The notes below the pieces were generated by a model that had not been told where the DNA came from, did not search any database, and saw nothing but the letters and a program-made list of their open reading frames with translations. DNA of 64,000 nucleotides. Source: a virus. Taxonomy: Duplodnaviria; Caudoviricetes. A program made the translations under genes and the position numbers. Of the stretch, positions 5,122-53,568 are shown piece by piece; the stretch's first letter is position 1; every line of letters starts with the position of its first letter. Where the stretch lies: the IMG/VR virus record IMGVR_UViG_3300014204_000122, positions 72,570 to 136,569 of that record; one strand, written 5' to 3'.

Positions 5122-5204
5122 GTTCCCACGACAGGATTCAAACCCGCATTTTCAACATTCAATTACGTATACTTGATCCGTATTCAAGCTCGGTTACGTA
5201 GGAA
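5122..5204 (-). ncRNA. Non-canonical tRNA-like element (8-bp acceptor, T arm, no D stem, hairpin with ACG loop)
   Basis: TTCCTACG/CGTGGGAA acceptor, GCGGG-TTTGAAT-CCTGT T arm, CTTGA-ATACGGA-TCAAG hairpin. Confidence 0.55.
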
Positions 5205-5217
5205 TAAAAATAAAAAG

Positions 5218-5313
5218 TCTAGTGTGAGGGATTCGAACCCTCGGATAATACTACCTGTGTACCACCGCACGCTTCCAAGACGTGCATCTTAAACCTAACT
5301 CGACCAACACTAG
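5218..5313 (-). tRNA. tRNA-Pro(TGG) with long variable arm
   Basis: C1-G72, A73; CACGT-CTTGGAA-GCGTG anticodon arm; long variable region. Confidence 0.8.
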
Positions 5314-5323
5314 TTATAATTAG

Positions 5324-5395
5324 TAGCCCTAGATTGATTCGAACAATCATCAAGTCATTCGTAGTGACCCATTCTATCCGTTGAACTATAGAGCC
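5324..5395 (-). tRNA. tRNA-Arg(ACG)
   Basis: Cloverleaf; GGTCA-CTACGAA-TGACT. Confidence 0.92.
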
Positions 5396-5404
5396 TCAAA
5401 TTTG

Positions 5405-5489
5405 CTGATTAGGTACGACTCGAACGTACAAGCTCTTTACGAGCACTTGCTTCAAAGACAAGTGTGTTTACCAATTCCACCACTAATCA
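5405..5489 (-). tRNA. tRNA-Gln(TTG) with long variable arm
   Basis: U1-A72, G73; CTTGT-CTTTGAA-GCAAG; GCTC-GTAAA-GAGC variable arm; Leu-like D arm. Confidence 0.85.
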
Positions 5490-5495
5490 ATATTG

Positions 5496-5568
5496 TATCC
5501 ATAGATGGGTTTGAACCACCGACCGCCAAGGTATAAGCTTGGAACTCTGACCACTGAGTTATATGGAT
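5496..5568 (-). tRNA. tRNA-Ile(TAT)
   Basis: CCAAG-CTTATAC-CTTGG. Confidence 0.9.
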
Positions 5569-5591
5569 ATATTTCAATTAACTTAATCTAG

Positions 5592-5666
5592 TCGAGGTGG
5601 TGAGATTTGAACTCACGAACCGACGTTTCCAGGACGCCGTTGTATAACCATCTGCATAACACCTCG
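5592..5666 (-). tRNA. tRNA-Pro(TGG), atypical (C33, weak D arm)
   Basis: C1-G72, A73; GGCGT-CCTGGAA-ACGTC. Confidence 0.75.
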
Positions 5667-5679
5667 TTATATTTTTTTG

Positions 5680-5750
5680 TTGTCTTACAAGGATTCGAAC
5701 CTTGAATACCTGGATCAAAACCAGATGTGTTACCATTACACTATAAGACA
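5680..5750 (-). tRNA. tRNA-Gln(TTG)
   Basis: TCTGG-TTTTGAT-CCAGG; U1-A72. Confidence 0.92.
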
Positions 5751-5822
5751 ATATATTTTAAAATCTAATTCTATGTTTCTCTGTCTATCGATCCTTTAAA
5801 TTAGTAACGGTCTCCTGTATCG

Positions 5823-5898
5823 TCTAGGTAGTGAAATTTGAATTCACGTGCTCTGCATCCCAAATGCAGCGAGATAAACCTGACTCCTCTATACCTAG
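5823..5898 (-). tRNA. tRNA-Pro(TGG)
   Basis: CTGCA-TTTGGGA-TGCAG; C1-G72. Confidence 0.9.
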
Positions 5899-5921
5899 TT
5901 ATATATTTTTAAATTTTAAGC

Positions 5922-5958
5922 AAAAAAAAATCTCAATCAAATTACTGATTGAGATTTT
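5922..5958 (-). terminator. Attenuator terminator upstream of tRNA operon 1
   Basis: AAAATCTCAATCA-GTAATT-TGATTGAGA followed by T9 on the minus strand. Confidence 0.88.
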
Positions 5959-5990
5959 CTATTAAAATATGAAATATTAACGTAAAACTT

Positions 5991-6080
5991 TTAAATTTTA
6001 ATATTCAATTTTAAACATGACTCAATCAGGCTGCTTCTGCGCGGCTGTTGAGGTATTTGTATGTTTAAAATTGCGTTCAT
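5991..6080 (-). CDS. Attenuator leader peptide 1, MNAILNIQIPQQPRRSSLIESCLKLNIKI (Ile-AUA/Gln/Pro/Arg-CGN sensor)
   Basis: Run ATA CAA ATA CCT CAA CAG CCG CGC; contains CTGATTGAG complementary to the terminator 5' arm CTCAATCAG. Confidence 0.85.
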   Translation of the reverse strand: MNAILNIQIPQQPRRSSLIESCLKLNIKI

Positions 6081-6094
6081 TTTGTTTATTTTAT

Positions 6095-6193
6095 TTTTAA
6101 ATATTACTTTTTTATTTATTTATTATTAATATAAGAAATTATTTTTGTTTTATTTCTATTTTGATACCCTAAAGATATATTTTTTTATAATAC
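6095..6193 (-). promoter_or_regulatory. Promoter cassette of tRNA operon 1 (99-bp near-identical repeat of 9555-9653)
   Basis: 3 mismatches to 9555-9653; contains TATCTTTAG, TTCTTATATTAATAAT and TATTTAAA boxes also upstream of operon 3. Confidence 0.75.
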
Positions 6194-6197
6194 AAAC

Positions 6198-6611
6198 CTA
6201 ATATTTTGAATTATTTTTTAACACTATACCATTTTTATAAACTTCATACTCATAAAAACGAGGTAATCCATATTTTAGAGCTTCTGCTAAATCTGTCCAT
6301 TCTTCTTCAGAAACCATATCATCTGGATAAGAAAAATTACCTTTTAAATGAGCAGGTATAGGTCTTAAATTAACTAAAACTAATTCACCTTCACCACCTT
6401 TAACATCTATTGCTAATTCTTCTGTGCTCCAATCTGATTTAGTATCGATAATTTCTTCAACTCTATCACGAATTTCTTTTTGTGTATAAATTTTAGGTGT
6501 TGGAGGATCAGGAAACATATCTTCTTTCAAAATTATTTTTTTTCCTGAAATTCTTTGTAATTTTTCAGTAAGCAATTGTATCTCTAATTGTTTTTCCTTT
6601 TCTGATTTCAT
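6198..6611 (-). CDS. Tagged hypothetical protein (MKSEKEKQLE leader)
   Basis: N-terminal 30-aa tag, unique C-terminus. Confidence 0.85.
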   Translation of the reverse strand: MKSEKEKQLEIQLLTEKLQRISGKKIILKEDMFPDPPTPKIYTQKEIRDRVEEIIDTKSDWSTEELAIDVKGGEGELVLVNLRPIPAHLKGNFSYPDDMVSEEEWTDLAEALKYGLPRFYEYEVYKNGIVLKNNSKY

Positions 6612-6612
6612 T

Positions 6613-6999
6613 CTATTTTTCTTCTATATCTTCAATTTCTACATCACTATTTTCAAAATCTATAGGTTCTACACTTATTTGTGGTTGAGTTTCTTCTCCC
6701 TCTAATGCTTTATCAACACTGATAATTTCACAAGAAACTATGTTAGTGAATACTTTTAATCTTTTATCAATTGCATTTTTAAGTTCTTCTTCTGAAGGTT
6801 CAAGATTATTTGTAATTATAATTTTACCTTCAATAAGAGTAGGTTCAAACCCTTCAAATAAAACAGATACTTTAAATAAATAAGTAATATTGTTCCAATA
6901 ACTATTCATTTCTGTAAAAACTACTTTCTTGCCAGATATTCTTTGAATTTTTTCTGTAAGTAATTGTATCTCTAATTGTTTTTCTTTTTCTGTTTTCAT
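6613..6999 (-). CDS. Tagged hypothetical protein
   Basis: N-terminal tag MKTEKEKQLE...VVFTE. Confidence 0.85.
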   Translation of the reverse strand: MKTEKEKQLEIQLLTEKIQRISGKKVVFTEMNSYWNNITYLFKVSVLFEGFEPTLIEGKIIITNNLEPSEEELKNAIDKRLKVFTNIVSCEIISVDKALEGEETQPQISVEPIDFENSDVEIEDIEEK

Positions 7000-7011
7000 T
7001 ATTGTTTATAG

Positions 7012-7269
7012 TTATACAGTTATTTTATTCCAAAAATCATTTAATTTTTTATCTGCACCCACTGCTAATTGAATTATGTCTTTAGATATAGGTCCTCCTA
7101 TGATTTTAGCTGATTCTATAATGGCTTTTAATTTTTCTGCTACTATTAAAATATCTTTTATATTATTAGTGGCTTCGTTTTCTTTTAAAACTACTTTCTT
7201 GCCAGATATTCTTTGGATCTTTTCAGTAAGTAATTGAATTTCTAATTGTTTTTCTTTTTCTGTTTTCAT
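7012..7269 (-). CDS. Tagged hypothetical protein
   Basis: N-terminal tag. Confidence 0.85.
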   Translation of the reverse strand: MKTEKEKQLEIQLLTEKIQRISGKKVVLKENEATNNIKDILIVAEKLKAIIESAKIIGGPISKDIIQLAVGADKKLNDFWNKITV

Positions 7270-7275
7270 TATTAA

Positions 7276-7692
7276 TTAAATACTGATTGTTTTTACTTCT
7301 TGAATATTTAGTTTTCCTGGAACTACTATAAAAGTAACATTTTCACAAGTCCATTTATCATAATCATCGAATGATTCATGTTTGCACTCTTCAATAAGCT
7401 CTAAAGCATCTTCTGATTCTTTTTTATCTATAAGAGTTAAAAAATTAAGTAAGGCAATTTTTCTATTGATTCCTTTTACATAACTTATTTCTGAAACGTC
7501 TGCATTTCCTGAATTAGATTGTGAATAAACAGTAAATATTTTTTCTTCTTCTTGAGGTTCTCCTGGTTCCATAAGTTCTTCGATAATATCTTTGTCTTCA
7601 CTTTCTGTAAAAACCACTTTCTTGCCAGATATTCTTTGAATTTTTTCTGTAAGTAATTGTATCTCTAATTGTTTTTCTTTTTCTGATTTCAT
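7276..7692 (-). CDS. Tagged hypothetical protein
   Basis: N-terminal tag. Confidence 0.85.
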   Translation of the reverse strand: MKSEKEKQLEIQLLTEKIQRISGKKVVFTESEDKDIIEELMEPGEPQEEEKIFTVYSQSNSGNADVSEISYVKGINRKIALLNFLTLIDKKESEDALELIEECKHESFDDYDKWTCENVTFIVVPGKLNIQEVKTISI

Positions 7693-7727
7693 TTTATTTA
7701 TATTTTAATTATTTACTTTAAATATAA

Positions 7728-8351
7728 TTAATTTGGTTTTCCTACTAAAATTTTATAATGTTTTTCACCTGCAATGTCTCTTAAATACCAGCCTTCTTTT
7801 ATATTAGATCCTTTAGGATTCTCTCCAACCCATGTTACTTTCTTTCCTAATACTTGTTCTACTTCTTGTTGATTGTTTATAATAGGTACATTATATCTTT
7901 CTAGAACTTTCATTATTCTATTATCAACTTCACAATAAAAACCTTGATTCTTTACTTTATTTGCAGCTCTTTCAAAATAAGATATAATAGAAGCTCTTGC
8001 TCCATCGTGTCCTACTCCTACTAATTTAATACCGTGTTTAGTATTTTTTCCAAAATATAATACATCTATATCAGGATCTTGATCTATATCTACTACTTCT
8101 ACATAAGAAAAATCATCATTTGATAAAATATCATTTGTTGACTTTATATTACTATGACCTCCAATTTGAGAATATGCTATATTAATAAGTTCAAGAAATT
8201 CATCTACTAGTTCTGGGTGAGATTTTATATTGATTTTCTCCCACTCATGTTTTTTTAATCCTAATTTTGATGATTCTTTTTCTATAAGAATGACTTTGCT
8301 TTTAGAAATTTTTTCTAATTTTTCAATTAATAATTGTAAAATAGGTTTCAT
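7728..8351 (-). CDS. Hypothetical protein with degenerate tag
   Basis: Starts MKPILQLLIEKLEKISKSKVILIE. Confidence 0.8.
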   Translation of the reverse strand: MKPILQLLIEKLEKISKSKVILIEKESSKLGLKKHEWEKINIKSHPELVDEFLELINIAYSQIGGHSNIKSTNDILSNDDFSYVEVVDIDQDPDIDVLYFGKNTKHGIKLVGVGHDGARASIISYFERAANKVKNQGFYCEVDNRIMKVLERYNVPIINNQQEVEQVLGKKVTWVGENPKGSNIKEGWYLRDIAGEKHYKILVGKPN

Positions 8352-8416
8352 TTATAGCATTTTATTATAAATATAGGAAAGTAAAATATAAAAATTAAAT
8401 TTTATAATATTTTTTG

Positions 8417-8499
8417 TACTCTAGGTCAGACTCGAACTGACACGCTTGAGGGCGACGACGCTTAAAATCGTTGTGTACTACCAATTTCACCACTAGAGC
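8417..8499 (-). tRNA. tRNA-Leu(TAA)
   Basis: ACGAT-TTTAAGC-GTCGT; class II body. Confidence 0.88.
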
Positions 8500-8504
8500 A
8501 TTTG

Positions 8505-8586
8505 TGATCTAAGAGAGATTTGAACTCTCACTATTTACATAATTAGCTTCTTAAACTAACGTGTCTACCAATTCCACCATTAGACC
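8505..8586 (-). tRNA. tRNA-Leu(AAG)
   Basis: TTAGT-TTAAGAA-GCTAA; Leu-type D arm, A73. Confidence 0.8.
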
Positions 8587-8594
8587 ATATTTTG

Positions 8595-8684
8595 CGGAAG
8601 ATGAGGGGGTCGAACCCTCGTAACGGTTTTTAAGCGTCCTAATTGTTTAGCAAACAATCCTCTTTACCATTTGAGTAACCTTCC
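8595..8684 (-). tRNA. tRNA-Ser(GCT)
   Basis: ATTGT-TTGCTAA-ACAAT; G73; long variable arm. Confidence 0.92.
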
Positions 8685-8696
8685 ATTTTATTTTTG

Positions 8697-8771
8697 TAGA
8701 TTAGAAGGGAGTCGAACCCTCACTGAATAGTTTCTAAAACTATTGCCTCTTAACCATTGGGCTACTAATCC
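8697..8771 (-). tRNA. tRNA-Leu(TAG), short variable loop
   Basis: ATAGT-TTTAGAA-ACTAT. Confidence 0.87.
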
Positions 8772-8785
8772 ATTTATATTTTTTG

Positions 8786-8876
8786 TACTCCAGGTCGGAC
8801 TCGAACCGACAGTGTTTTCTCAATGAGTGTCACCGTTTAAAAGTGATGCGTTTCAACCAAGTTTCGCCACTGGAGC
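8786..8876 (-). tRNA. tRNA-Leu(TAA)
   Basis: TCACT-TTTAAAC-GGTGA. Confidence 0.9.
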
Positions 8877-8895
8877 ATATTTATTTTTTTATTTG

Positions 8896-8968
8896 GGTGA
8901 AAACGGGGCTCGAACCCTGTCCTAGATATTCACAGTATCTCATGCTAACCAATAACACTATTTTCACC
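8896..8968 (-). tRNA. tRNA-His(GTG)
   Basis: AGATA-CTGTGAA-TATCT; G-1:C73. Confidence 0.92.
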
Positions 8969-8977
8969 ATATATTTG

Positions 8978-9070
8978 CGGAAGAAGTAGGATTCGAACCC
9001 ACACACCCCTAAAGGCCCTCGGTTTTCAAGACCGCCGCCGCTACCCTGCAAGCTTTCGGCTTATTCTTCC
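8978..9070 (-). tRNA. tRNA-Ser(TGA), enlarged D loop
   Basis: GCGGT-CTTGAAA-ACCGA; G73. Confidence 0.88.
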
Positions 9071-9084
9071 ATTTTTTTATTTAG

Positions 9085-9174
9085 GGTGAAAGACGAGTCA
9101 CGATCTCGCATTAAGTTGTTACACTATTCCAGAACCACAATCTGGTCGGCATCCAATTACCGGCTACTAACACC
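9085..9174 (-). tRNA. tRNA-His(GTG), atypical (long variable region, mismatched acceptor)
   Basis: CCAGA-TTGTGGT-TCTGG; G-1:C73; GTGTTAG/CTTTCAC acceptor. Confidence 0.7.
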
Positions 9175-9262
9175 ATATATTTTTAAAATAATATTATAAG
9201 CCGTACACTTTTCACAGTCGCTATGGGTTTCAACCATTTAGTACTTATAATATTATTTAAAG

Positions 9263-9346
9263 CGGAAGAAGAGAGATTCGAACTCTCGAAGCTTTTACAC
9301 CCAGTTGTTTTCAAAACAATGTCCTCATGCCTACCGGATTTCTTCC
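9263..9346 (-). tRNA. tRNA-Ser(TGA)
   Basis: ATTGT-TTTGAAA-ACAAC; G73. Confidence 0.87.
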
Positions 9347-9380: not shown

Positions 9381-9390
9381 ATATACAAAC

Positions 9391-9430
9391 AAAAAAAACC
9401 CTTGATCAATTTATTTAGATCAAGGGTTTT
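9391..9430 (-). terminator. Attenuator terminator upstream of tRNA operon 2
   Basis: AAAACCCTTGATC-loop-GATCAAGGG followed by T8. Confidence 0.88.
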
Positions 9431-9457
9431 TAATATTAACTTTTAAAATTATAGAAA

Positions 9458-9550
9458 TTATCTTTTCGTTAAATCATACCTTGATCCACATCTGCTACTT
9501 GATAACAGGTGTAAATGCGATAACAACGATATGATAACTATTTTTTTCAT
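9458..9550 (-). CDS. Attenuator leader peptide 2, MKKIVIISLLSHLHLLSSSRCGSRYDLTKR (Ser/Leu/His sensor)
   Basis: 12 consecutive Ser/Leu/His codons; GGATCAAGG pairs with the terminator 5' arm CCTTGATC. Confidence 0.88.
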   Translation of the reverse strand: MKKIVIISLLSHLHLLSSSRCGSRYDLTKR

Positions 9551-9554
9551 TTTC

Positions 9555-9653
9555 TTTTAAATATTACTTTTTTATTTATTTATTATTAATATAAGAAATT
9601 ATTTTTGTTTTATTTCTATTTTAATGCTCTAAAGATATATTTTTTTATAATAC
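9555..9653 (-). promoter_or_regulatory. Promoter cassette of tRNA operon 2 (repeat of 6095-6193)
   Basis: 99-bp direct repeat, 3 mismatches. Confidence 0.75.
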
Positions 9654-9678
9654 TAACCAAATTATTTTAAATTATTTT

Positions 9679-10323
9679 TTATTTCATTACATATAGTTGG
9701 TATTTTCCTTTAGGAAATTCTTTAATTTCTTCAGGTGTATTAGCTGTTGCTAAAACCTTAGTTAATGTTCCAACATAGTAAGGATTATAAATTTTTGCTT
9801 TTCTATTATAAAGAGATGGAAGTTTAGTTGTACCATTTCCATCATCAAATAAATATAAATCTCTATTATCTTTTAAATATTCTTCTGTTTTTCCTGAACC
9901 TGATAAAATAATTGTTTTATCATTTCCCACAAGTTTAAGTAAAAAATATGCTGTCTTATTTTGCACAAACTCATTATTTAATGGATTTTGCGTATCAATT
10001 TTACTATCTGAATTTAAACAAGCTATTTTTATTCCTTTCTTTTCTTCTTCTAATATAATACTTTTATTAGATAATGTTGAAAATGCACTTTCATTTAGCA
10101 CTTCAAAAACCAATATACCGTTACCACCAAATTTTGAATTATTTCCTACTAATTGTCCCTCTTCATCAAATCCTAAATGAGACCAACCATCTTCTTCTAA
10201 TTCTTTTTTAAATTCAGGATCTAATTCAACCTCTTCTTTTAAAACTACCTTCTTACCAGATATTCTTTGAATTTTTTCAGTAAGCAATTGTATTTCTAGT
10301 TGTTTTTCTTTTTCTGATTTCAT
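9679..10323 (-). CDS. Tagged hypothetical protein
   Basis: N-terminal tag; internal IILEE. Confidence 0.85.
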   Translation of the reverse strand: MKSEKEKQLEIQLLTEKIQRISGKKVVLKEEVELDPEFKKELEEDGWSHLGFDEEGQLVGNNSKFGGNGILVFEVLNESAFSTLSNKSIILEEEKKGIKIACLNSDSKIDTQNPLNNEFVQNKTAYFLLKLVGNDKTIILSGSGKTEEYLKDNRDLYLFDDGNGTTKLPSLYNRKAKIYNPYYVGTLTKVLATANTPEEIKEFPKGKYQLYVMK

Positions 10324-37815: not shown

Positions 37816-39543
37816 ATGAGTAATTTTAGAGACGAGCTAACAGATTTTTATAAAAGACTGTCAGGAAAAGAAAGAATAAAAATAGCCAATTCAAATGTTA
37901 ACATACTTAATTCTGCCCCAACTGAGCAAGAAAGAGTTATGAAACAAAAAATCTGGCAATTAAATCAATATGTTAGATTAAAAAGTAGCAATAGGAGATA
38001 TTTACAATTTTTTGATGAATATCGCCAAATGGATGTTACTTTCCCTATTATAAAGGCAGCTCTAGATATATATGCAGAAGAAACAGTAAGTAAGGACGTA
38101 AGTGGAGATCTTATTAAAATAGTAACAGAAAATGAAAAAGTAAAACAATTGCTTGAAGAATGTTATTTTTCTAATTTAGATTTAAATAAAAGAGCTTTTA
38201 TAATAGCTAGAGAGTTTTGTAAATTTGGAAATGTTTATGCCTATCTTATAACTAGACAAGATGATGGTGTTGTAGATTTAGTCTTTTTACCAGCAGATGC
38301 TTTAGTAAGACAACAAATGTTAGGATTAACTGCATATGAAGATCAAATGGATTTTGAAAAAATAAATGAATATCAATTTGTATGGCATGGTAGTGGTGGT
38401 GGTGGAACTGTTTTTGAACCATGGGAAATTGTACATTGGAAAAATTCAGAAGATTTAGAATCAGAACCATATGGAGTATCAATTTTAAGACCTATTGTAG
38501 AAACGTGGAGAAGAGTTGTTTTAATGAGAGAAGCTTTAATTGTATATAGAATTTCAAGGGCACCTCAGCGTTACTTATTTAAAATTGCAACAGATGGCTT
38601 AACTGGAGAAGAAGCTTATAGGTTTGCACAAGATGTTAAAAAAGAAGTCAAAAAGAAGCCTTTAGTAGATCCAAGAACAGGGGAAATAGATTTTAAGCAT
38701 AACCCCATGTCTGTTATGGATGATTTTTTTATACCAGTAGCTCAAAATAATTCTTCGGATATACAAGTTTTAGATGGAGCCAGTAATTTGGATGCTATAG
38801 AAGATTATAAAATTATCAAAGACGATTTGTTTGCAGGATTAAAAATACCAAAAGCATATTTAACTTTTGAAGAAACGTTAAGTAATAAAGCAGCTTTAGG
38901 GGAAGAAGACGCAAGGTTTAGTAAAACAATACAACGTATACAAACAGAGTTTATACAAGGTTTAGTTCATATAGGTATAGTTCATTTATTTCTTAATGGA
39001 TGTTCTACTGAAGAAATACAGTCTTTTAGTTTAGAAATGGCCCAATCTTCTACAATAGCGGAACAGAGAAAATGGGAAATAATGACAGCTAAACTAGATG
39101 TTGCTGTTAAATTATGGGATGAACAAAAAGCAGGATTGAATTTTATGACTTATGCGGATGTTTTAAAAACAGTATTTAAATTTACAGATGAAGAGATACA
39201 AGAAACTATAAAAAAACAATTTATAGAAAAGAAAATAGCATGGAGATTAGAACAGATAAAAACAAATGGTTTTTATGAAATGCCAGAACTTGATAATTTA
39301 ACCGATAAGTTAAAAGGATTAACTCCTGGATCTAGCATGTCAGATAAAGACTTAAATATATTTAAATCTTTGAATTTTGAAAGTTTTGAAAGTATAAAAC
39401 CTATTATTGACCAGCACATAGATGAAGAAATAGCAACTATGTTTAAAACTCCTTCTATAAAGCCAACAAAAAAAGATATAAATAGAGTAAAGGGTTTACT
39501 TACAGATAATATAGAAAAAACAAAAAAGGATATAAAAGTTTAA
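37816..39543 (+). CDS. Portal protein (T4 gp20-like)
   Basis: ALDIYAEE, LMREALIVYRISRAPQRYLF, DDFFIP, LFAGLKIP, EDARFSKTI. Confidence 0.95.
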   Translation: MSNFRDELTDFYKRLSGKERIKIANSNVNILNSAPTEQERVMKQKIWQLNQYVRLKSSNRRYLQFFDEYRQMDVTFPIIKAALDIYAEETVSKDVSGDLIKIVTENEKVKQLLEECYFSNLDLNKRAFIIAREFCKFGNVYAYLITRQDDGVVDLVFLPADALVRQQMLGLTAYEDQMDFEKINEYQFVWHGSGGGGTVFEPWEIVHWKNSEDLESEPYGVSILRPIVETWRRVVLMREALIVYRISRAPQRYLFKIATDGLTGEEAYRFAQDVKKEVKKKPLVDPRTGEIDFKHNPMSVMDDFFIPVAQNNSSDIQVLDGASNLDAIEDYKIIKDDLFAGLKIPKAYLTFEETLSNKAALGEEDARFSKTIQRIQTEFIQGLVHIGIVHLFLNGCSTEEIQSFSLEMAQSSTIAEQRKWEIMTAKLDVAVKLWDEQKAGLNFMTYADVLKTVFKFTDEEIQETIKKQFIEKKIAWRLEQIKTNGFYEMPELDNLTDKLKGLTPGSSMSDKDLNIFKSLNFESFESIKPIIDQHIDEEIATMFKTPSIKPTKKDINRVKGLLTDNIEKTKKDIKV

Positions 39544-43690: not shown

Positions 43691-43715
43691 TTTTAATAAA
43701 ATAAGAAAATAAATA

Positions 43716-43746
43716 AAAAAACCCAAGAAATTTCTTGGGTTTTTTT
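43716..43746 (+). terminator. Intrinsic terminator
   Basis: AAAACCCAAGAAATTTCTTGGG + T-run. Confidence 0.75.
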
Positions 43747-43805
43747 ATTTCTGTAATATTTAAAATAAAATACATTAATTTAAAAACAATTTAAAAATTG
43801 ATAAA

Positions 43806-45482
43806 ATGAGACAATTACAAGAAAACACTGAAAAATATAATTTAGGCCGTATTCTTGACCGTTCAGAAACTACACGTATTACAGAAGTAGTTTCAGCATG
43901 GAAAAAATCGGGTTATTTATATGGTCTTAAAGGTAGAGACCTAGGTAAAATGGCTATTTTAGCTGAAAATCAAAAAAAACAAATTTTACAAGAAAATAAC
44001 ACTACTGCAGATATGGCAGTATTTGACACAATCGCAATTCCTATGATTCGTCGTCAAAATGCATTAATGGTAACTCCTAATTTAATTAGTGTTCAACCAT
44101 TATCATATCCAAACGGTATTGTTTTCTATTTAGACTATGAAGTGTCTAACGAAAAAGTATCTGTTGGTACAGCAAAAACATGGGAAGGTAAATCAGGATA
44201 TGATCGTTTTTACGATAATGCTGGTTATGATACTTCTAAAGGACGTATTATTGCACGTGGTTATCCTACATATGCTGGCCCTATTGCTCCTATTGATGCT
44301 GCTTTAGCTGCAGAATTTCAAGTTGCAGGTGTTGACTTAGGTGCCGGTGCTGATCTTAATCTTGCAATTGTAGAACTTGATGGTGCTGCAGTTGGTGGAT
44401 TTGCAATGAATAACTTAGCTTCTTTAAGAGTATTTGCTCATAATGGTATTAAAGAATTAGTAGAAGGTGTAGATTATTTTATTCAAAAAACAATACAAGA
44501 TTGGGGAACTGATTTATTATCTAAAAATCGTGTTGCAGGTGTAACAGCTTCAGGTAACGCAGGTGGACAAAATCAACCGCCAGCAAATACAGGTGGTGGA
44601 ATACAAGGTCCAGGTGCAGGTGATAATATTGTTGAAGTAAAAATTATTCCTACAGTAGCTGGTTTAGGTGCAAACGTAACAGTTCGTTTTGGATTTAACG
44701 ATTATGCTAACTTAGAATTAGAACCACAAAACAGTACAGAATTACGTATGAAAATTACTTCTGCTCCTGTTCAAACTCATATTCATAAGTTAAAAACAGC
44801 TTGGACTATTGAATTAGCTCAAGACTTAATGGCTTACCACGCAATTGATGCTGAAGCTGAATTAACTCAGTTAATGTCAGAAGAAGTAGCTCAAGAAAAA
44901 GACCGTATGATCATTAAAGAATTAGTATATGGTGCAGCTCACTTTGAAGTGTGGAATGCAGATTTTGCTACTGCTGTTGATCCTAATCCTGCTAATACAG
45001 TATTCCGTGGTACAGAAGGAACATACAATCAAACATTAGTTTATGCCGTTAACAGAATCAATGGTAAAATCCAAAAATCAACTCGTAGAGGTGGTGCTAA
45101 CTGGATTCTTATCTCTGCTGAAGGTGCAGCTAAATTAGAAAACTTAGATACTTATAAACCAATTGAAGGTGATGCAGAAGGAACAAAATTTGCTGCAGGT
45201 GTTGAAAAAATGGGTAAATTATCTAAAAAATGGGATGTGTTTGTTGATCCAATGTTACCAGCTGAAGTTTGTTTAGTAGGTCGTAAAGGTACTTCTTTCT
45301 TTGATACAGGATTCGTTTATTGTCCATATATTGAATATATACTATCTCCAGTTGTTATTGATCCAGAGACTTTCAACCCTCGTAGACAATTAGCTTCTAG
45401 ATTCGGAACAAAAATGTTAAATAATAAATTCTATGGTATTGTTCATATGAAAGGAATTGAAAAATTCGAGATATTTGACTAA
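43806..45482 (+). CDS. Major capsid protein (T4 gp23-like)
   Basis: MAILAENQ, VQPL, KLKTAWTIELAQDLMAYHAIDAEAEL, GFVYCPY, DPETFNPR. Confidence 0.97.
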   Translation: MRQLQENTEKYNLGRILDRSETTRITEVVSAWKKSGYLYGLKGRDLGKMAILAENQKKQILQENNTTADMAVFDTIAIPMIRRQNALMVTPNLISVQPLSYPNGIVFYLDYEVSNEKVSVGTAKTWEGKSGYDRFYDNAGYDTSKGRIIARGYPTYAGPIAPIDAALAAEFQVAGVDLGAGADLNLAIVELDGAAVGGFAMNNLASLRVFAHNGIKELVEGVDYFIQKTIQDWGTDLLSKNRVAGVTASGNAGGQNQPPANTGGGIQGPGAGDNIVEVKIIPTVAGLGANVTVRFGFNDYANLELEPQNSTELRMKITSAPVQTHIHKLKTAWTIELAQDLMAYHAIDAEAELTQLMSEEVAQEKDRMIIKELVYGAAHFEVWNADFATAVDPNPANTVFRGTEGTYNQTLVYAVNRINGKIQKSTRRGGANWILISAEGAAKLENLDTYKPIEGDAEGTKFAAGVEKMGKLSKKWDVFVDPMLPAEVCLVGRKGTSFFDTGFVYCPYIEYILSPVVIDPETFNPRRQLASRFGTKMLNNKFYGIVHMKGIEKFEIFD

Positions 45483-45500: not shown

Positions 45501-45536
45501 AAATAAAAGCCTTGTTTTTTACAAGGCTTTTATTTT
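45501..45536 (+). terminator. Intrinsic terminator after MCP
   Basis: AAATAAAAGCCTTGT/ACAAGGCTTTTATTT. Confidence 0.75.
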
Positions 45537-48527: not shown

Positions 48528-49994
48528 ATGAAATCAGAAAAAGAAAAACAATTGGAAATACAACTACTTACTGAAAAAATTCAAAATATATCTGGAAAAA
48601 AGGTTATTTTCAAAGAAGAGTTTAATATAGAAGAGGAAGACGATTATTATTTAATAACCTCTTTAGAAGATGAAATAGAAACTGAAGCTTTTATAGATAA
48701 TTCAAAATATATTCAAAATAAATTTCCAAATGAAAAAGTTTTAAAAATTGATTGTGTTTATAATAATGATTTTTTTAAAAAATTTATAGGGTTTTTAAAA
48801 AAGAATAATATTAAATATAATATTAGAAAGGCAAGATTAGATAATTTTTGTAGAATCAATATAAATGTAAAAGATTTAAAATCAACAAACATTTTAAAAG
48901 AAAACGAAGAGAAAACATATAAAATATCAAAAACATATAACGATAAAACTAAAGTTATTGAAGATACTTTAGAAGGATTAATCAAATATTTTAGTTATAC
49001 TTTAGAATCAGGAAAAAGTCATAATAGTTCAATAGATAAAAGACCTAAAACAATTAATAGTCTTATAAGTAATTTAAGAAAAGCTTTTGATGAATTAGAA
49101 GGAGGTTTTTCTAGAACAAGTATTAGGTTAATTAAAGAAAATGTTGAAGTATTAAAAGAAACTATGTCTGCTATCCCTCCTGTTAAAAGTAAAACATCTG
49201 ATTTAGAGAATTTAAGAGCTGCAATTATAGCAGAATATGATGCTATTAATTTATATGATCAAATGGCTAATAATACAAAAAATAGTAAAATTAAAGAAGT
49301 TTTGTTAGATATAGCTAAAGAAGAAAAAACTCATGTAGGTGAATTAGAAGCACTTTTAAAAGACTTTGACAAACAACATGCAGAAGAAGTCGTTTCAGGA
49401 GAAAAAGAGGTTAAAAAAGCTTTAAAAGAAGAAAAAACAACAGTTTTAAAAGAAGCTATTAATCCTAGCAGTTGGAATATGACTAATGTGGCAAATAAAG
49501 TAGAAAGTTATGCAAATGAAAAAAATATACCTTTTGCTAAATTTAAAATTGAAAGAAAACCTTATGGGTATGGAGCTACTAGAACTACAGCTAAATTAAA
49601 AATAGGTTCAAATATAATTCTTATGAAAGTAGATAAAGTACCTGGAATGGGCAATAACGCAAATGACCTTGAGGTATATATGATAGATCCACAAGATGAA
49701 TCTAAAGGTATAAAAATCAGCAACTGGTGTTATTTATCAGATATTCCAAAATTTTTAGATAAATGGTTTGAATCATCTCAAGTTAGTTCTGATATTAAAA
49801 CAATGTCTAAAGAAGAGGTTGAAAAATTAAAATCAGATTTAAAAAAGGCAAGAATTGAAAATAATGAAGAAATAAGTGATGATCAAGCTTTTGATATAGC
49901 AGAAAATATTATAAATGAAAATCCGGGTTTAAAGGAATATTTAACTAGTATAGGAATTAAAGATATACAAGGCTATATAGCTAATTGGATATAA
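48528..49994 (+). CDS. Tagged multidomain protein containing a ferritin-like domain
   Basis: N-terminal tag; LRAAIIAEYDAINLYDQ...DIAKEEKTHVGEL; domains separated by (L/I)KE. Confidence 0.8.
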   Translation: MKSEKEKQLEIQLLTEKIQNISGKKVIFKEEFNIEEEDDYYLITSLEDEIETEAFIDNSKYIQNKFPNEKVLKIDCVYNNDFFKKFIGFLKKNNIKYNIRKARLDNFCRININVKDLKSTNILKENEEKTYKISKTYNDKTKVIEDTLEGLIKYFSYTLESGKSHNSSIDKRPKTINSLISNLRKAFDELEGGFSRTSIRLIKENVEVLKETMSAIPPVKSKTSDLENLRAAIIAEYDAINLYDQMANNTKNSKIKEVLLDIAKEEKTHVGELEALLKDFDKQHAEEVVSGEKEVKKALKEEKTTVLKEAINPSSWNMTNVANKVESYANEKNIPFAKFKIERKPYGYGATRTTAKLKIGSNIILMKVDKVPGMGNNANDLEVYMIDPQDESKGIKISNWCYLSDIPKFLDKWFESSQVSSDIKTMSKEEVEKLKSDLKKARIENNEEISDDQAFDIAENIINENPGLKEYLTSIGIKDIQGYIANWI

Positions 49995-50060
49995 AAAAAT
50001 AAACATTGATAATCAATGAATTATAAATTATTTTAAATTATTTTAAGAAAAAGGTTGTTT

Positions 50061-50175
50061 TGTATTAGAAAAAACCATTATCTTTAGCATAACAAATTAA
50101 GAGAAATAATACACTTTTGTAAAAATTTTTCTTATATTAATAATGAAAAATAAAAAATAGTTATATTTAAAAGAA
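50061..50175 (+). promoter_or_regulatory. Promoter cassette of tRNA operon 3
   Basis: GTATTA-A-run-TATCTTTAG (50079), TTCTTATATTAATAAT and TATTTAAAAGAAA in the same order as at operons 1 and 2. Confidence 0.65.
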
Positions 50176-50191: not shown

Positions 50192-50278
50192 ATGAAAAAG
50201 TGGTATACATATAGAACAATTATGACAGCCTTTAATAAAGGGGTAGAGGATTGTGGTGTACTCGATATTCGGATTTAA
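50192..50278 (+). CDS. Attenuator leader peptide 3, MKKWYTYRTIMTAFNKGVEDCGVLDIRI (15-amino-acid sensor)
   Basis: Codons 2-21 contain K,W,Y,T,R(AGA),I(ATT),M,A,F,N,G,V,E,D,C; ATTCGGATTTAAA at the stop pairs with TTTAAACCCGAAT of the terminator. Confidence 0.88.
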   Translation: MKKWYTYRTIMTAFNKGVEDCGVLDIRI

Positions 50279-50303: not shown

Positions 50304-50337
50304 AAACCCGAATCAGTAAAAAGTTTCGGGTTTTTTT
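50304..50337 (+). terminator. Attenuator terminator upstream of tRNA operon 3
   Basis: AAACCCGAA-loop-TTCGGG followed by T7. Confidence 0.85.
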
Positions 50338-50359
50338 ATCCGGAAAAAAAAATAAAAAA

Positions 50360-50376
50360 AGTTCTTTGACATATTG
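50360..50376 (+). promoter_or_regulatory. boxA-like antitermination element
   Basis: AGTTCTTTGACATATTG resembles rrn leader boxA. Confidence 0.6.
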
Positions 50377-50388
50377 GTATAAAAAAAT

Positions 50389-50477
50389 GGTTCTGTGGTG
50401 AAAGTATCACAAGGCAGTCGATTCACAACAGTGAGGTATCTTCAGTCGTGTTACAGGTTCATATCCTGTCAGAACCA
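50389..50477 (+). ncRNA. Non-canonical tRNA-like element (acceptor, D and T arms; no standard anticodon arm)
   Basis: GGTTCTG/CAGAACC-A, GTGA-AAGTA-TCAC, ACAGG-TTCATAT-CCTGT. Confidence 0.55.
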
Positions 50478-50486
50478 CATAATATT

Positions 50487-50567
50487 GGATCAGTTGAGCA
50501 ATTGGTTGGCTCGCCTGACTGTAGATCAGGTCTGAAAGGCGTGGGGGTTCGAATCCCTCCTGATCCA
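50487..50567 (+). tRNA. tRNA-Tyr(GTA)
   Basis: CCTGA-CTGTAGA-TCAGG. Confidence 0.92.
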
Positions 50568-50841
50568 CATGATATTTTTCACTAGGTTTTGTTAATCTGA
50601 CAAAATAATAAACCTTTAAACATATTAAATAAAAAGTCAGAATAGTTTAATATGGGTTTTAAGACGGTTTAAGCGCCGATAAATTATTCATTCAGTGGAA
50701 AGTAAAGTTTAGTTGTGTAGCATTGTAATTATTTATAATGAATTAAATTTTATGGACTCCGAGATGATCATATATATAGAAAGGTATATAATTTTACAAG
50801 TAGAAGGCTTGTTATTAAAACTTATTTTTTTTAAGAAATAT

Positions 50842-50917
50842 TCCTCTGTAGCTATTAATTGGTTAGAGCGATAAATTGTTAATTTGGGGGTTGTTGGTTC
50901 GAGTCCAACTGGAGGAG
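50842..50917 (+). tRNA. tRNA-Asn(GTT), weak anticodon stem
   Basis: ATAAA-TTGTTAA-TTTGG; TCCTCTG/TGGAGGA-G. Confidence 0.8.
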
Positions 50918-50928
50918 CAAAATAAAAT

Positions 50929-51001
50929 GGATGAGTGGCGTAATTGGTAGCGCAATTGACTGTTAATCAATAGGTTATGGGATCGTACCCCATCTCATCC
51001 G
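50929..51001 (+). tRNA. tRNA-Asn(GTT)
   Basis: ATTGA-CTGTTAA-TCAAT. Confidence 0.9.
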
Positions 51002-51013
51002 CAAACAAAAAAT

Positions 51014-51088
51014 GCCTTGATAGCGCAGGTGGTCAGTTCGCGCTGGACTGAAAATCCAGAGATAGTGGTTCAACTCCACTTCAGGGCA
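51014..51088 (+). tRNA. tRNA-Phe(GAA)
   Basis: CTGGA-CTGAAAA-TCCAG. Confidence 0.9.
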
Positions 51089-51101
51089 CATAAAATAAAA
51101 C

Positions 51102-51186
51102 GCACGAATAGCACGTAACTGGAAGCGTCCTTCTCTTCTAAAGAAGTGACTTTATGTTCTTGAAGGTTCGAATCCTTCTTCGTGTA
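51102..51186 (+). tRNA. tRNA-Arg(TCT) with long variable arm
   Basis: CTTCT-CTTCTAA-AGAAG. Confidence 0.82.
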
Positions 51187-51213
51187 CAATTAAAATAATA
51201 GTTATTATAAAAT

Positions 51214-51284
51214 AGATCTATGGTGTAGTGGTAACATTTTGAGCTCCAACCTCAACGTCCTGCGTTCGAATCGTAGTGGGTCTG
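51214..51284 (+). tRNA. tRNA-Trp(CCA)
   Basis: TTGAG-CTCCAAC-CTCAA. Confidence 0.88.
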
Positions 51285-51302
51285 CAAAAAAATAAAACAT
51301 AT

Positions 51303-51387
51303 GTCACGTTCGACTAGCGGTCCAGGTCGCCAGGTTTTCATCCTGGTTAGAGAAATCTTAACATCGGTTCAAATCCGATACGTGATA
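51303..51387 (+). tRNA. tRNA-Glu(TTC) with long variable arm
   Basis: CCAGG-TTTTCAT-CCTGG; TTAGAGAAATCTTAAC variable region. Confidence 0.85.
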
Positions 51388-51411
51388 CTGTAGATAAAAT
51401 AAATAAAATAA

Positions 51412-51483
51412 CACCCGTTCGACAAGTGGTTAAGTCGTCAGGTTTTCAACCTGGAGTCACGAGTTCAAATCTCGTACGGGTGA
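51412..51483 (+). tRNA. tRNA-Glu(TTC)
   Basis: TCAGG-TTTTCAA-CCTGG. Confidence 0.9.
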
Positions 51484-51489
51484 CTAAAT

Positions 51490-51561
51490 AGTTCGGTGGT
51501 ACAATGGTGGTATAACTCGTTGTCTGCGAGATGGTTAGGGGTTCAAGTCCCCTCCGAACTG
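51490..51561 (+). tRNA. tRNA-Asp(GTC)
   Basis: CTCG-TTGTCTG-CGAG; G73. Confidence 0.82.
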
Positions 51562-51686
51562 CAATAAATTAAATAAATAAATAAAAATTAAATTATAAGT
51601 AAAATGAAAAAACAAATTAAGCAAGTCAAACTTTAGAACAACACCTCTATCAAGGATACGTGTTGTAAAAATTAAAAAATTACAAT

Positions 51687-51759
51687 GCGTTCGTAGCTCA
51701 ATTGGTGGAGCACTCGACTTTTGATCGAGGGGCTGTGAGTTCAATTCTCACCGGACGTA
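51687..51759 (+). tRNA. tRNA-Lys(TTT)
   Basis: CTCGA-CTTTTGA-TCGAG. Confidence 0.9.
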
Positions 51760-51766
51760 CAAGTAT

Positions 51767-51858
51767 GCGTTTGTTCGCTTAGCCCGGTCGAAAGCACCAC
51801 TCTTTTAAAGTGGATAGTTATTATAACTACATCGTAGGTTCAAATCCTACCAGACGTA
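51767..51858 (+). tRNA. tRNA-Lys(TTT) with long variable arm
   Basis: CCACT-CTTTTAA-AGTGG; TAGTTA-TTA-TAACTA arm. Confidence 0.85.
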
Positions 51859-51869
51859 CTTAATTATAT

Positions 51870-51945
51870 AGAGGTATAGCTCAGCCCGGTTTAGAGCAAC
51901 TCTTTTACACAGAGAAGGTCGTTGGTTCGAATCCAGCTATCTCTA
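51870..51945 (+). tRNA. tRNA-Val(TAC)
   Basis: CTCT-TTTACAC-AGAG. Confidence 0.9.
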
Positions 51946-51958
51946 CAAAAAAATAAAT

Positions 51959-52030
51959 GGTCTATTGGTGTTAATGGTAACATGCTACACTGTCTATGTA
52001 GTGCTTTCGGTTCGAATCCGTGATAGACCG
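51959..52030 (+). tRNA. tRNA-Asp(GTC)
   Basis: CTACA-CTGTCTA-TGTAG. Confidence 0.87.
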
Positions 52031-52040
52031 CACAATATAT

Positions 52041-52115
52041 TGGAATATAGCTCAGCCCGGTCAGAGCGCGAAACTGATACTTTCGATGTCGGGGGTTCAA
52101 ATCCCTCTATTCCAA
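52041..52115 (+). tRNA. tRNA-Ile(GAT)
   Basis: CGAAA-CTGATAC-TTTCG. Confidence 0.92.
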
Positions 52116-52193
52116 CATTTTAAAGTAATAATTAATTAAAAAAAATAAAAAAATGAAAACAATAATTGGAGGTGACAGCTTGGTCGCGATTTA

Positions 52194-52670
52194 ATGAAAG
52201 AACAAAGAATTCAACTTAAAAAGAAACAAATTGATAGTAAAAATCATAGAAAGTTACAAAAATATTCTACTAATTTTAATGAAATATTTTCTTTTTTTTT
52301 AAAAAGCTATAGAAAAGGAATTTTAACCTTTTGTGGATCAAACGTTGAAGTAGATTTTGATTATAATGAAGGAAACAGTAAGTTTTGTTTTAGAAAGTAT
52401 GATAATGGTGAATATAAGTTCCAATCTATTAAATCTAAACATCCAAATATTTTAAAATCAGTAATTATAGGAAAGAAAAGTTGGGGATTATTTTTACAAC
52501 AATGGTCAGATGGTATAGTTGATTGGAGTTTTACAGAAGAAGAAATTTTACAAGAGTTTAAAGATAATAATATAACAATTCCTGAACCTTTGTTAAAAGA
52601 TTTTCGTAATGTTATTTTAAAAAAGAAAATTAAAAGAAATGATGAATATTTAAAAAACTGGAGGTTATAA
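52194..52670 (+). CDS. Hypothetical protein embedded in tRNA operon 3
   Basis: 158-aa ORF; TAATG-coupled to a 13-aa mini-ORF at 52153. Confidence 0.7.
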   Translation: MKEQRIQLKKKQIDSKNHRKLQKYSTNFNEIFSFFLKSYRKGILTFCGSNVEVDFDYNEGNSKFCFRKYDNGEYKFQSIKSKHPNILKSVIIGKKSWGLFLQQWSDGIVDWSFTEEEILQEFKDNNITIPEPLLKDFRNVILKKKIKRNDEYLKNWRL

Positions 52671-52868
52671 ATGAAATTAAAAACATTAGAAGAAAAGGAA
52701 GATTATTTAAAACAATTAGCAAAAGAAAGAAATTATAAAAATCTTAATTTAACATTAAATCCAAATAAAAATATTACAAAAGAAATGATCATAGATGATT
52801 TAATATTTTTATTTGAATTAAAAAGAGATAAGAAAATGAAATTAATTTTTACAACTAAAGGTAAATAA
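52671..52868 (+). CDS. Small hypothetical protein
   Basis: Abuts previous ORF. Confidence 0.55.
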   Translation: MKLKTLEEKEDYLKQLAKERNYKNLNLTLNPNKNITKEMIIDDLIFLFELKRDKKMKLIFTTKGK

Positions 52869-52945
52869 TTTTTAAAGAAGTATTTGTGAACATTAACACA
52901 ATGGTAGTAAAAATGTTGATTTTCGGTAATAAGAACCGTTTTTTA

Positions 52946-53019
52946 GGAGAATTAACTCAGCTGACTAGAGTACCTACCTTGCACGTAGGAGGTCATCGGT
53001 TTGAATCCGATATTCTCCA
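52946..53019 (+). tRNA. tRNA-Ala(TGC) (A3-U70 rather than G3-U70)
   Basis: CCTAC-CTTGCAC-GTAGG; GGAGAAT/ATTCTCC-A. Confidence 0.85.
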
Positions 53020-53027
53020 CAAATAAT

Positions 53028-53099
53028 GCAAGAGTAGCTCAGGGATAGAGCGATTGATTACCAATCAATAGGTCGGGATTTTGAAACTCCTCTCTTGCT
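53028..53099 (+). tRNA. tRNA-Gly(ACC)
   Basis: ATTGA-TTACCAA-TCAAT; G1-C72, C2-G71, U73; imperfect T stem. Confidence 0.75.
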
Positions 53100-53209
53100 C
53101 AAATTTTCTCTCCCAAAACAAGATAAATAGGTAGGAGGTAGGTGTGTTAAATCTTTTAACATAAATTTTAAAGTTTTTCTTTTAATTTATCTTGTTTTTT
53201 ATTATTTTT

Positions 53210-53282
53210 GCAAAATGTAGCTTAATTGGCTAAAGCACTTGTCTTCCAAACAGGGGATGCGGATCGTACCCGACATTTTGCT
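53210..53282 (+). tRNA. tRNA-Gly(TCC), apparent 8-bp acceptor and short T stem
   Basis: CTTGT-CTTCCAA-ACAGG; GCAAAATG/CATTTTGC-T. Confidence 0.8.
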
Positions 53283-53317
53283 CATTTAGTTGTAGGATCT
53301 ATAAAACCTTCATATTT

Positions 53318-53390
53318 GCCGAAATAACACAATTGGTAGTGTAGTTGATTTGTAATCAACAGGTTAGGAGTTCAAATCTCCTTTTCGGCT
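53318..53390 (+). tRNA. tRNA-Thr(TGT)
   Basis: GTTGA-TTTGTAA-TCAAC. Confidence 0.9.
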
Positions 53391-53401
53391 CAAAATTATA
53401 T

Positions 53402-53484
53402 TGCGGTGTGCCTGAAGTTGGTATCAGTGAGGTCTCATAAACCTCTGTCGTTTGACCTCGCGGGTTCGAGTCCCGCTGCCGCAA
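53402..53484 (+). tRNA. tRNA-Met(CAT) with extended variable region
   Basis: GAGGT-CTCATAA-ACCTC. Confidence 0.8.
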
Positions 53485-53494
53485 CAAAAAATAT

Positions 53495-53568
53495 GCACAT
53501 ATGCTCGAGTGGTTTATGGGGCTGGTCTGCAAAACCAGTATTCGATGGTTCAAATCCATCTATGTGCT
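53495..53568 (+). tRNA. tRNA-Cys(GCA)
   Basis: CTGGT-CTGCAAA-ACCAG; U73. Confidence 0.9.

Follow-up and report, generated by a model that had tools for sequence, protein, structure and literature searches.

A 64,000-nt stretch of viral DNA (the window), comprising bases 72570-136569 of the 136,569-bp IMG/VR record IMGVR_UViG_3300014204_000122 (Duplodnaviria; Caudoviricetes; estimated completeness 63%), was analysed for three arrays of transfer RNA (tRNA) genes and the short open reading frames (ORFs) that precede them. The phage is T4-like. Its G+C content in the window is ~25%, and the gene products include a T4-type portal (37816-39543), a gp23-type major capsid protein (43806-45482) and a tail-sheath-like protein. 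The tRNA genes were called with ARAGORN and Rfam. Array 2 serves Ser, Leu and His only, and array 3 is interrupted by the ORFs 52194-52670(+) and 52671-52868(+). The amino-acid sets of the three arrays overlap at Ile and Arg only, both of which are divided by isoacceptor. Combined, the arrays cover all 20 amino acids and, under the wobble rules applied, 60 of the 61 sense codons. The tRNA content of each operon and the joint coverage of 20 amino acids, as claimed in an earlier note on this DNA, were borne out by the ARAGORN and Rfam calls.

The same parts precede all three arrays in the same order, namely a cassette of ~130 nt, an ORF of 28-30 codons, a segment complementary to the 5′ arm of a terminator, the intrinsic terminator itself and then the tRNAs (Table 1). 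This is the layout that the earlier note had described, and its leader coordinates were exact. The note had also described a shared promoter cassette. A common cassette was identified by cross-alignment and by a 17-mer whose exact sequence is found in the window at the three arrays only, but its function as a promoter remains putative. A further copy of the 17-mer with two mismatches is present at 8364-8380(-), between the last tRNA of array 2 and the ORF 8351..7728, and is possibly a related promoter without a leader. A search of IMG/VR with the 17-mer returned 117 matches, which were AT-rich and unrelated, and a longer gapped pattern returned zero.

All three leader ORFs begin with ATG and end with TAA. 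Their start contexts are A-rich and free of a Shine-Dalgarno (SD) motif, as are those of the phage genes; an SD-like motif precedes 2 of 45 long ORFs, and the 20 nt preceding the starts are 58% A. Translation initiation in this phage thus looks SD-independent. Strong intrinsic terminators outside ORFs number ~9 in the whole record. Only those of the arrays stand 238-310 nt past the nearest gene and 28-57 nt ahead of tRNAs, the remainder being located 13-37 nt past ORF ends. A predicted intrinsic terminator is placed between the leader and the first downstream gene at every array.

Table 1. Positions of the tRNA arrays, leader elements and unusual tRNAs in the window, and of the candidate leaders in phage phiCbK.
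Feature	Position	Strand	Description
tRNA array 1	5122..5898	-	5898..5217: Pro, Gln, Pro, Ile-TAT, Gln, Arg-ACG, Pro; then tRNA-like element 5203..5122
Upstream cassette, array 1	6100..6215	-	Putative promoter and 5′ untranslated region; aligns with regions upstream of leaders 2 and 3; 17-mer 6138..6122
Leader ORF 1	5991..6080	-	29 codons + TAA; control run codons 7-14 (6062..6039), IQIPQQPR
Segment 1 and antiterminator arm (segment 2), leader 1	6021..6052	-	Segment 1 6052..6044 in control run; segment 2 6029..6021, CTGATTGAG; duplex z = -3.7
Intrinsic terminator 1	5917..5959 (hairpin 5959..5926)	-	15-bp stem, 4-nt loop, T tract; 28 nt before first tRNA, 238 nt after nearest long ORF
tRNA array 2	8416..9346	-	Nine: Ser-TGA, His (90 nt), Ser-TGA-like, His, Leu-TAA, Leu-TAG, Ser-GCT, Leu-AAG, Leu-TAA
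Upstream cassette, array 2	9555..9690	-	Cross-alignment; 17-mer 9598..9582
Leader ORF 2	9458..9550	-	30 codons + TAA; control run codons 8-19 (9529..9494), SLLSHLHLLSSS
Antiterminator arm, leader 2	9479..9488	-	GGATCAAGG region, codons 21-24; duplex z = -3.2
Intrinsic terminator 2	9386..9431 (hairpin 9431..9394)	-	14-bp stem, 10-nt loop, T tract; 48 nt before first tRNA
tRNA array 3	50389..53569	+	~22 tRNAs, 15 amino acids: Y, N, F, R(TCT), W, E, D, K, V, I(GAT), A, G, T, M, C
Upstream cassette, array 3	50055..50175	+	Cross-alignment; 17-mer 50128..50144; first conserved block 50060..50087
Leader ORF 3	50192..50278	+	28 codons + TAA; control codons 2-21 (50195..50254), all 15 array 3 amino acids
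Antiterminator arm, leader 3	50266..50277	+	TTCGGATTT region, codons 25-29; weakest of the three, duplex z = -1.2
Intrinsic terminator 3	50305..50339 (hairpin 50305..50332)	+	8-9-bp G+C-rich stem, 12-nt loop, T tract; 57 nt before first tRNA-like gene
Long-variable-arm tRNA	5217-5313	-	Pro, 97 nt
Long-variable-arm tRNA	5404-5489	-	Gln, 86 nt
Long-variable-arm tRNA	9084-9173	-	His, 90 nt
Long-variable-arm tRNA	51102-51187	+	Arg-TCT, 86 nt
Long-variable-arm tRNA	51303-51388	+	Glu, 86 nt
Long-variable-arm tRNA	51767-51859	+	Lys, 93 nt
Long-variable-arm tRNA	53402-53485	+	Met, 84 nt
phiCbK candidate leaders	2541-2678 and 4342-4440 of the JX100813 stretch (L147)		gp083 and 32-codon ORF

The codons readable by each array were scanned in six frames across the whole 136.6-kb record (273,134 codon positions), with the anticodon TAT not counted as reading ATT or ATC. 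Runs of at least 8 array 1 codons were found only at codons 7-14 of leader 1, and runs of at least 12 array 2 codons only at codons 8-19 of leader 2, where the array 2 anticodons strictly decode every one of the 12 codons. Windows of 20 codons that consist entirely of array 3 codons and contain all 15 amino acids were limited to three overlapping windows in leader 3, consistent with the claim that its codons 2-21 hold the complete set. The analytic probability of a chance run under the codon usage of the phage was ~5 × 10−7 for leader 1 and ~9 × 10−9 for leader 2, and the leader 3 pattern arose in 0 of 2,000,000 simulated 20-codon draws. Given the six-frame uniqueness and the simulation, the match between leader and array codons, which the earlier note had put forward, is not due to chance.

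That note had called the split between the leaders isoacceptor-exact. This applies inside the control runs, where ATA and CGC accompany Ile-TAT and Arg-ACG, and ATT and AGA accompany Ile-GAT and Arg-TCT, but not to the whole of leader 1, which contains ATT at codons 4, 19, 27 and 29 and AGA at codon 15. Leader 3 contains a single Leu codon (codon 24), beyond the sensitive window. The control codons are enriched for synonymous codons that are rare in phage genes (TCG, CTG, AGC, CGC, CCG and GGG), with a G+C content at third codon positions of 34% vs 11.8% (0 of 20,000 simulations as extreme), and both codons of two-codon boxes tend to appear. Leader 3 also lists A, G, T, M and C, the tRNAs for which lie beyond the ORFs that interrupt array 3, which argues that the array may be one transcription unit.

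The terminator 3′ arm has an 8-10-nt near-copy in each leader, a few codons past the control run, and this copy is complementary to the 5′ arm. The three antiterminator sequences are mutually unrelated, and the three-way pairing relation is retained in each cassette. When free of ribosomes, leaders 1 and 2 are predicted to fold into a 1:2 hairpin, in which the control-codon region pairs with the antiterminator segment, followed by the terminator. This hairpin is clear in leader 1, partial in leader 2 and absent in leader 3, and the fold z-scores relative to dinucleotide shuffles were -4.5, -4.7 and -1.4, respectively. The calculated energies of antiterminator and terminator are similar in the three leaders (-16.6/-16.1, -13.3/-19.0 and -10.2/-11.2 kcal/mol).

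Co-transcriptional folding was modelled with transcripts cut just before the 3′ arm and a 30-nt ribosome mask placed at successive A-site codons. In these truncated folds, pairing between the in-ORF segment and the terminator 5′ arm is limited to A-site codons 2-13 of leader 1, 2-18 of leader 2 and 2-21/22 of leader 3, and the 5′ arm is unpaired at later positions. The last codon of each range falls at the end of the respective cognate run (codons 14, 19 and 21). In leader 1, a mask at codons 2-13 gives a 9-bp pairing of segment 2 with the 5′ arm, and in untranslated RNA the 1:2 hairpin persists and the 5′ arm remains free. In leader 2, there is no 5′-arm pairing at A-site codons 19-22, and a hairpin with control codons 12-16 also sequesters the first bases of the antiterminator arm. 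A ribosome placed at the stop codon leaves the 5′ arm free in leaders 1 and 3, the antiterminator arm of leader 3 likewise being unpaired, but not in leader 2. In leader 1, stalls at codons 2-6 leave segment 1 uncovered, and so only codons from ~7 should count kinetically; its cognate run starts at codon 7, matching this predicted onset.

Taken together, we consider it probable, at roughly 85%, that the three elements are ribosome-mediated leader-peptide transcription attenuators, each gating read-through from a common putative promoter cassette into one tRNA array and exerting negative feedback on decoding capacity. The parts and their order, the codon match, the alternative pairings and the co-variation across phages described below can be read directly from the DNA; from these, we infer that the leaders are translated, that transcription terminates at the hairpins, the sign of the response in vivo and its physiological trigger. 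Under this reading, a leader would be translated while RNA polymerase transcribes the terminator region. Fast decoding of the control run would carry the ribosome over or inside the antiterminator, and the terminator hairpin would form and stop transcription ahead of the tRNAs. Were the aminoacyl-tRNA for any control codon scarce, the ribosome would stall in the run, the in-ORF segment would pair with the terminator 5′ arm, and transcription would read through into the array. The sign of the response is predicted from the location of the antiterminator arm, which lies within the ORF, past the control codons. Since the control codons are read by tRNAs of the same array, the result would be a direct negative-feedback loop, by which the decoding capacity for three codon sets could be held at a set point during infection. 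The statistics, the masked folds and the co-variation in unrelated phages thus support the earlier proposal of stalling attenuators with control codons that match the downstream tRNAs and with negative feedback. The proposal that the tRNA pool is sensed codon by codon is not supported, as the resolution is one channel per array, or three channels in all.

Several observations weigh against this interpretation. Full-length minimum-energy folds always retain the terminator, whatever the ribosome mask, and are thus non-discriminating; the switch must therefore be kinetic, as is the choice in known attenuators. A ribosome that has reached the stop codon leaves the antiterminator arm of leader 2 unmasked, and the antiterminator of leader 3 is weak by both its duplex and its fold z-score. 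Leaders 1 and 2 open with 5-6 non-cognate codons, and in the simple mask model a stall there also frees the antiterminator unless the 1:2 hairpin persists. Finally, an attenuator of this type cannot distinguish a shortage of tRNA from amino-acid starvation, which extra tRNA would not relieve.

The last point raises the alternative that the attenuators report amino-acid starvation, or a general slowing of translation, and tune tRNA output to host physiology. Because a ribosome stalls for want of charged tRNA, read-through must also follow when a listed amino acid runs short, and leader 3, which samples 15 amino acids, would be almost a general sensor of translation speed. However, extra tRNA would bring no obvious benefit to a starved cell, and the match between leader and array extends to isoacceptors and wobble codons (ATA vs ATT, CGC vs AGA, and both codons of two-codon boxes), which argues that tRNA species, and not amino acids, are the quantity sensed. 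We therefore regard a starvation sensor as improbable.

To return to the attenuators as feedback devices, no close relatives of this phage were found, and the design recurs in distant phages with other tRNA partitions. An IMG/VR contig with an estimated completeness of 19% (G001), which is apparently a fragment of a much larger (megaphage) genome, carries three arrays behind its own common cassette (L126, L129 and L130). The leaders list Gly/Pro/Ala/Gln/Thr, Leu/Met/Asn/Asp/Glu/Tyr and Trp/His/Phe/Ile/Lys/Arg/Ser/Val, which are the amino acids of the respective arrays. The G001 cassette (L129 and L130) has a textbook Bacteroidota-type promoter (TTTG, ~20 nt, TAnnTTTG) ahead of each leader, and isolated single tRNAs in the same contig are without a leader. 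Ten further leader/array cases were identified in the published huge-phage genomes LR756502, LR756501, LR756500 and LR745206. These include an Arg/Ser array with SSRSRSS, a Pro/Asp/Gln array with PQPQDQDP, a Gln-only sub-array with QQIQQQQ, and a nested case in which the outer leader lists both sub-arrays and the inner leader the distal sub-array only. In a 362-kb IMG/VR phage (L154), the leader of a Cys/Val/Leu array matches its content, and a tRNA array of this phage contains an inserted HNH-type homing-endonuclease-like ORF (8000-8300 of L154).

Across 16 leaders, 15 scored their own array first of 16, and 15 contained every amino acid of their own array. The single miss is explained by the choice of a far-upstream ATG as the start. 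When the pairing of leaders and arrays was shuffled, 0 of 100,000 permutations reached the observed concordance, in agreement with the expectation that leader codons co-vary with array content in other phages. Codons for cognate amino acids were strictly decodable by the array anticodons in 199 of 218 instances, compared with 174.6 ± 4.1 expected from synonymous usage. The control codons are thus specific to the regulated product, as judged by this codon-level excess and by the six-frame uniqueness of the runs. The antiterminators of the 16 leaders were compared by duplex energies, and the segment forming the best duplex with the terminator 5′ arm was in every case inside the ORF, immediately past the cognate run (mean z = -2.8). 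Both these duplexes and the masked, truncated folds place the antiterminator where it would be free under a stalled ribosome, with a weak signal in leader 3.

The design was also observed in a cultured phage. In Caulobacter phage phiCbK (JX100813), annotated rho-independent terminators lie directly ahead of tRNA blocks. The phiCbK protein gp083, annotated as a 45-residue 'hypothetical protein', consists almost only of Pro, Thr, Lys, Leu, His, Ala and Ser, which are the seven amino acids served by the block that follows. Ahead of the next terminator lies an unannotated ORF of 32 codons that lists Phe, Val, Ile, Gln, Arg and Gly, and its block has exactly those tRNAs. On this basis, gp083 and the 32-codon ORF look like leader peptides of tRNA-array attenuators, and the annotated terminators would be regulatory. 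Neither 'attenuat' nor 'leader' occurs in the text of the phiCbK genome paper, whose only reported RNA elements are tRNAs; the huge-phage genome paper is likewise without attenuation or leader wording. When the tRNA clusters of T4 and T5 were analysed with the same pipeline, no leader with a terminator was found, and KVP40 gave one candidate only, which was uninformative. The empty T4 and T5 controls indicate that the signal is not produced by the method, and that the design is not universal.

These comparisons also bear on the simplest alternative, in which there is no regulation at all, the terminators being ordinary or partial, the short ORFs untranslated, and the match a product of chance or composition. 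Translation of the leaders and regulated termination are sequence-based predictions, and the preference of the full-length folds for the terminator is compatible with this view. Against it stand the uniqueness of the runs in six frames, the excess at codon level, the positional fit of the antiterminator, the co-variation in unrelated phages with different partitions, and the empty results for T4 and T5 arrays that were processed identically. An absence of regulation is accordingly considered highly improbable.

If the elements are attenuators, candidate triggers include a fall in the host tRNA pool after host shut-off, a mismatch in codon usage and tRNA-cleaving defences. Phage tRNAs can rescue infection from tRNA-cleaving defences, and the same hardware could have been selected for counter-defence, with replacement tRNAs switched on when host anticodon nucleases cleave the host tRNAs. 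The hardware would respond to the loss of any sampled tRNA, and full replacement would be possible given the coverage of 20 amino acids and all but one sense codon. However, the window offers no link between the arrays and a nuclease, and none of the neighbouring genes was identified as serving tRNA repair. The targets of known nucleases are limited to one or a few tRNA species, whereas 15 amino acids share a single channel in leader 3, and the design is accounted for just as well by host shut-off or a mismatch in codon usage. The suggestion in the earlier note that host anticodon nucleases are the trigger is thus compatible with the data but has no specific support, and we consider counter-defence as the selected role to be rather unlikely. 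A broader idea, to which we give somewhat more credence, though still tentatively and at less than even odds, is that of a convergent 'tRNA-pool homeostat' across lineages (the T4-like phage, the Bacteroidota-type megaphages and phiCbK). The leader roster would measure live decoding capacity, the array would be on only when needed, and the main trigger would be depletion of host tRNA by shut-off or tRNA-cleaving defences. If so, the leaders could serve as natural sensors of specific codons and could help to reveal the decoding identity of odd phage tRNAs.

Some tRNAs of the arrays are unusual in structure. Long base-paired variable arms, similar to those of Leu, Ser and Tyr tRNAs, are present on tRNAs for class-I amino acids in all three arrays (Table 1), and most of these tRNAs adjoin a copy of normal length with an identical anticodon. 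The annotation of phiCbK likewise includes tRNA-Lys of 88 and 91 nt. The tRNA-like element 5122-5203(-), at the far end of array 1, is without an assignable anticodon, and the tRNA-like element 50389-50478(+), at the start of array 3, has 37 nt in place of a 17-nt anticodon arm; these may be degenerate tRNAs or processing signals. The two ORFs within array 3 had no Pfam or PHROG match. Relatives of the ORF 52194-52670 were identified in or beside huge-phage tRNA regions, in LR756502 (66.7% nucleotide identity) and in the 362-kb IMG/VR phage (56% amino-acid identity).

Comparison of the neighbouring ORFs with Pfam and PHROGs assigned no function except a rubrerythrin-like domain. This is a rubrerythrin/ferritin-like domain in a 488-residue protein (48528-49994(+)), encoded directly upstream of cassette 3, with partial relatives in other large phages. 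Relatives of the protein 9679-10323 were searched for and none were found; those of the protein 53699-54658 had no tRNAs nearby. The major capsid gene is flanked by strong hairpins (43713-43748 and 45502-45534), which are terminator-like on both strands. A landfill metagenome was the sole sequencing run that contained the whole DNA, and a look-up of RNA runs with this DNA returned none. Contigs of four metagenome runs comprised short fragments only, with nothing on RNA ends or compensatory changes. The closest cultured capsid relative is that of Flavobacterium phage immuto (37% identity), which has 4 tRNAs only and is without a clear attenuator. The canonical Bacteroidota promoter motif is not enriched in this phage. 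With this result, and with the SD-less starts and the distant Flavobacterium phage capsid as weak hints, a Bacteroidota host, as assumed in the earlier note, was not supported.

Phage tRNA genes are usually viewed as constitutive helpers in codon usage or as counter-defence spares. A built-in sensor of decoding speed would make their expression demand-driven and self-limiting, and would explain why arrays are split into blocks. Such leaders would allow operon boundaries and tRNA decoding identity to be predicted from sequence alone, and would represent compact natural parts for codon- or tRNA-specific biosensors. The proposed link between tRNA-targeting immunity and phage tRNAs would become directly testable, as phiCbK and Caulobacter can be cultured and the phage carries the same design. 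No prior description of attenuators before tRNA genes was found in the full-text literature, with most subscription-journal papers outside the search, in agreement with the statement in the earlier note that none was known for phage tRNA arrays. As far as we could find, no tRNA gene has been described as controlled by attenuation that acts on the molecule being sensed.

The phage resembles T4, T5 and KVP40 in having clustered tRNA genes in a large genome, and it shares a T4-type portal, capsid and sheath; unlike the T4 and T5 clusters, its arrays have a leader and a terminator ahead of them. T-box riboswitches also key a choice between terminator and antiterminator to the state of a specific tRNA. 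Unlike the phage leaders, T-boxes bind uncharged tRNA directly, need no translation, and regulate synthetase, transport and biosynthesis genes. A gathering-score scan of the whole window with Rfam returned tRNAs only, and permissive scans of the leader regions returned nothing relevant, with no match to the T-box (RF00230) or another cis-regulatory family; T-box identity was thereby ruled out. The Escherichia coli pheST attenuator, with its pheM leader, is similar in that a leader peptide controls a translation component for the sensed amino acid, but pheST controls an aminoacyl-tRNA synthetase and senses one amino acid, whereas the phage elements control tRNAs.

Also alike in form are the enterobacterial attenuators, both the multivalent ilvGMEDA (Ile/Leu/Val) and thr (Thr/Ile) and the single-amino-acid trpL, hisL, leuL and pheL, which have a short leader ORF, a run of control codons and a terminator before the first regulated gene. 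Rare codons in the runs are a further feature of these systems, as are the mutually exclusive 1:2, 2:3 and 3:4 pairings and the selection of the antiterminator by a stalled ribosome that are predicted here, the 1:2 hairpin being clear in leader 1 and partial in leader 2. The phage leaders differ in listing as many as 15 amino acids in a single leader, in being unrelated in sequence and, for leader 3, in the lack of a clear 1:2 hairpin. They work like the trp, his, leu, thr, ilv and phe attenuators and are not members of those operon families, in which the targets are biosynthetic enzymes or a synthetase. In the phage-borne elements, the regulated genes are tRNAs, and the loop would act on the sensed molecule itself.

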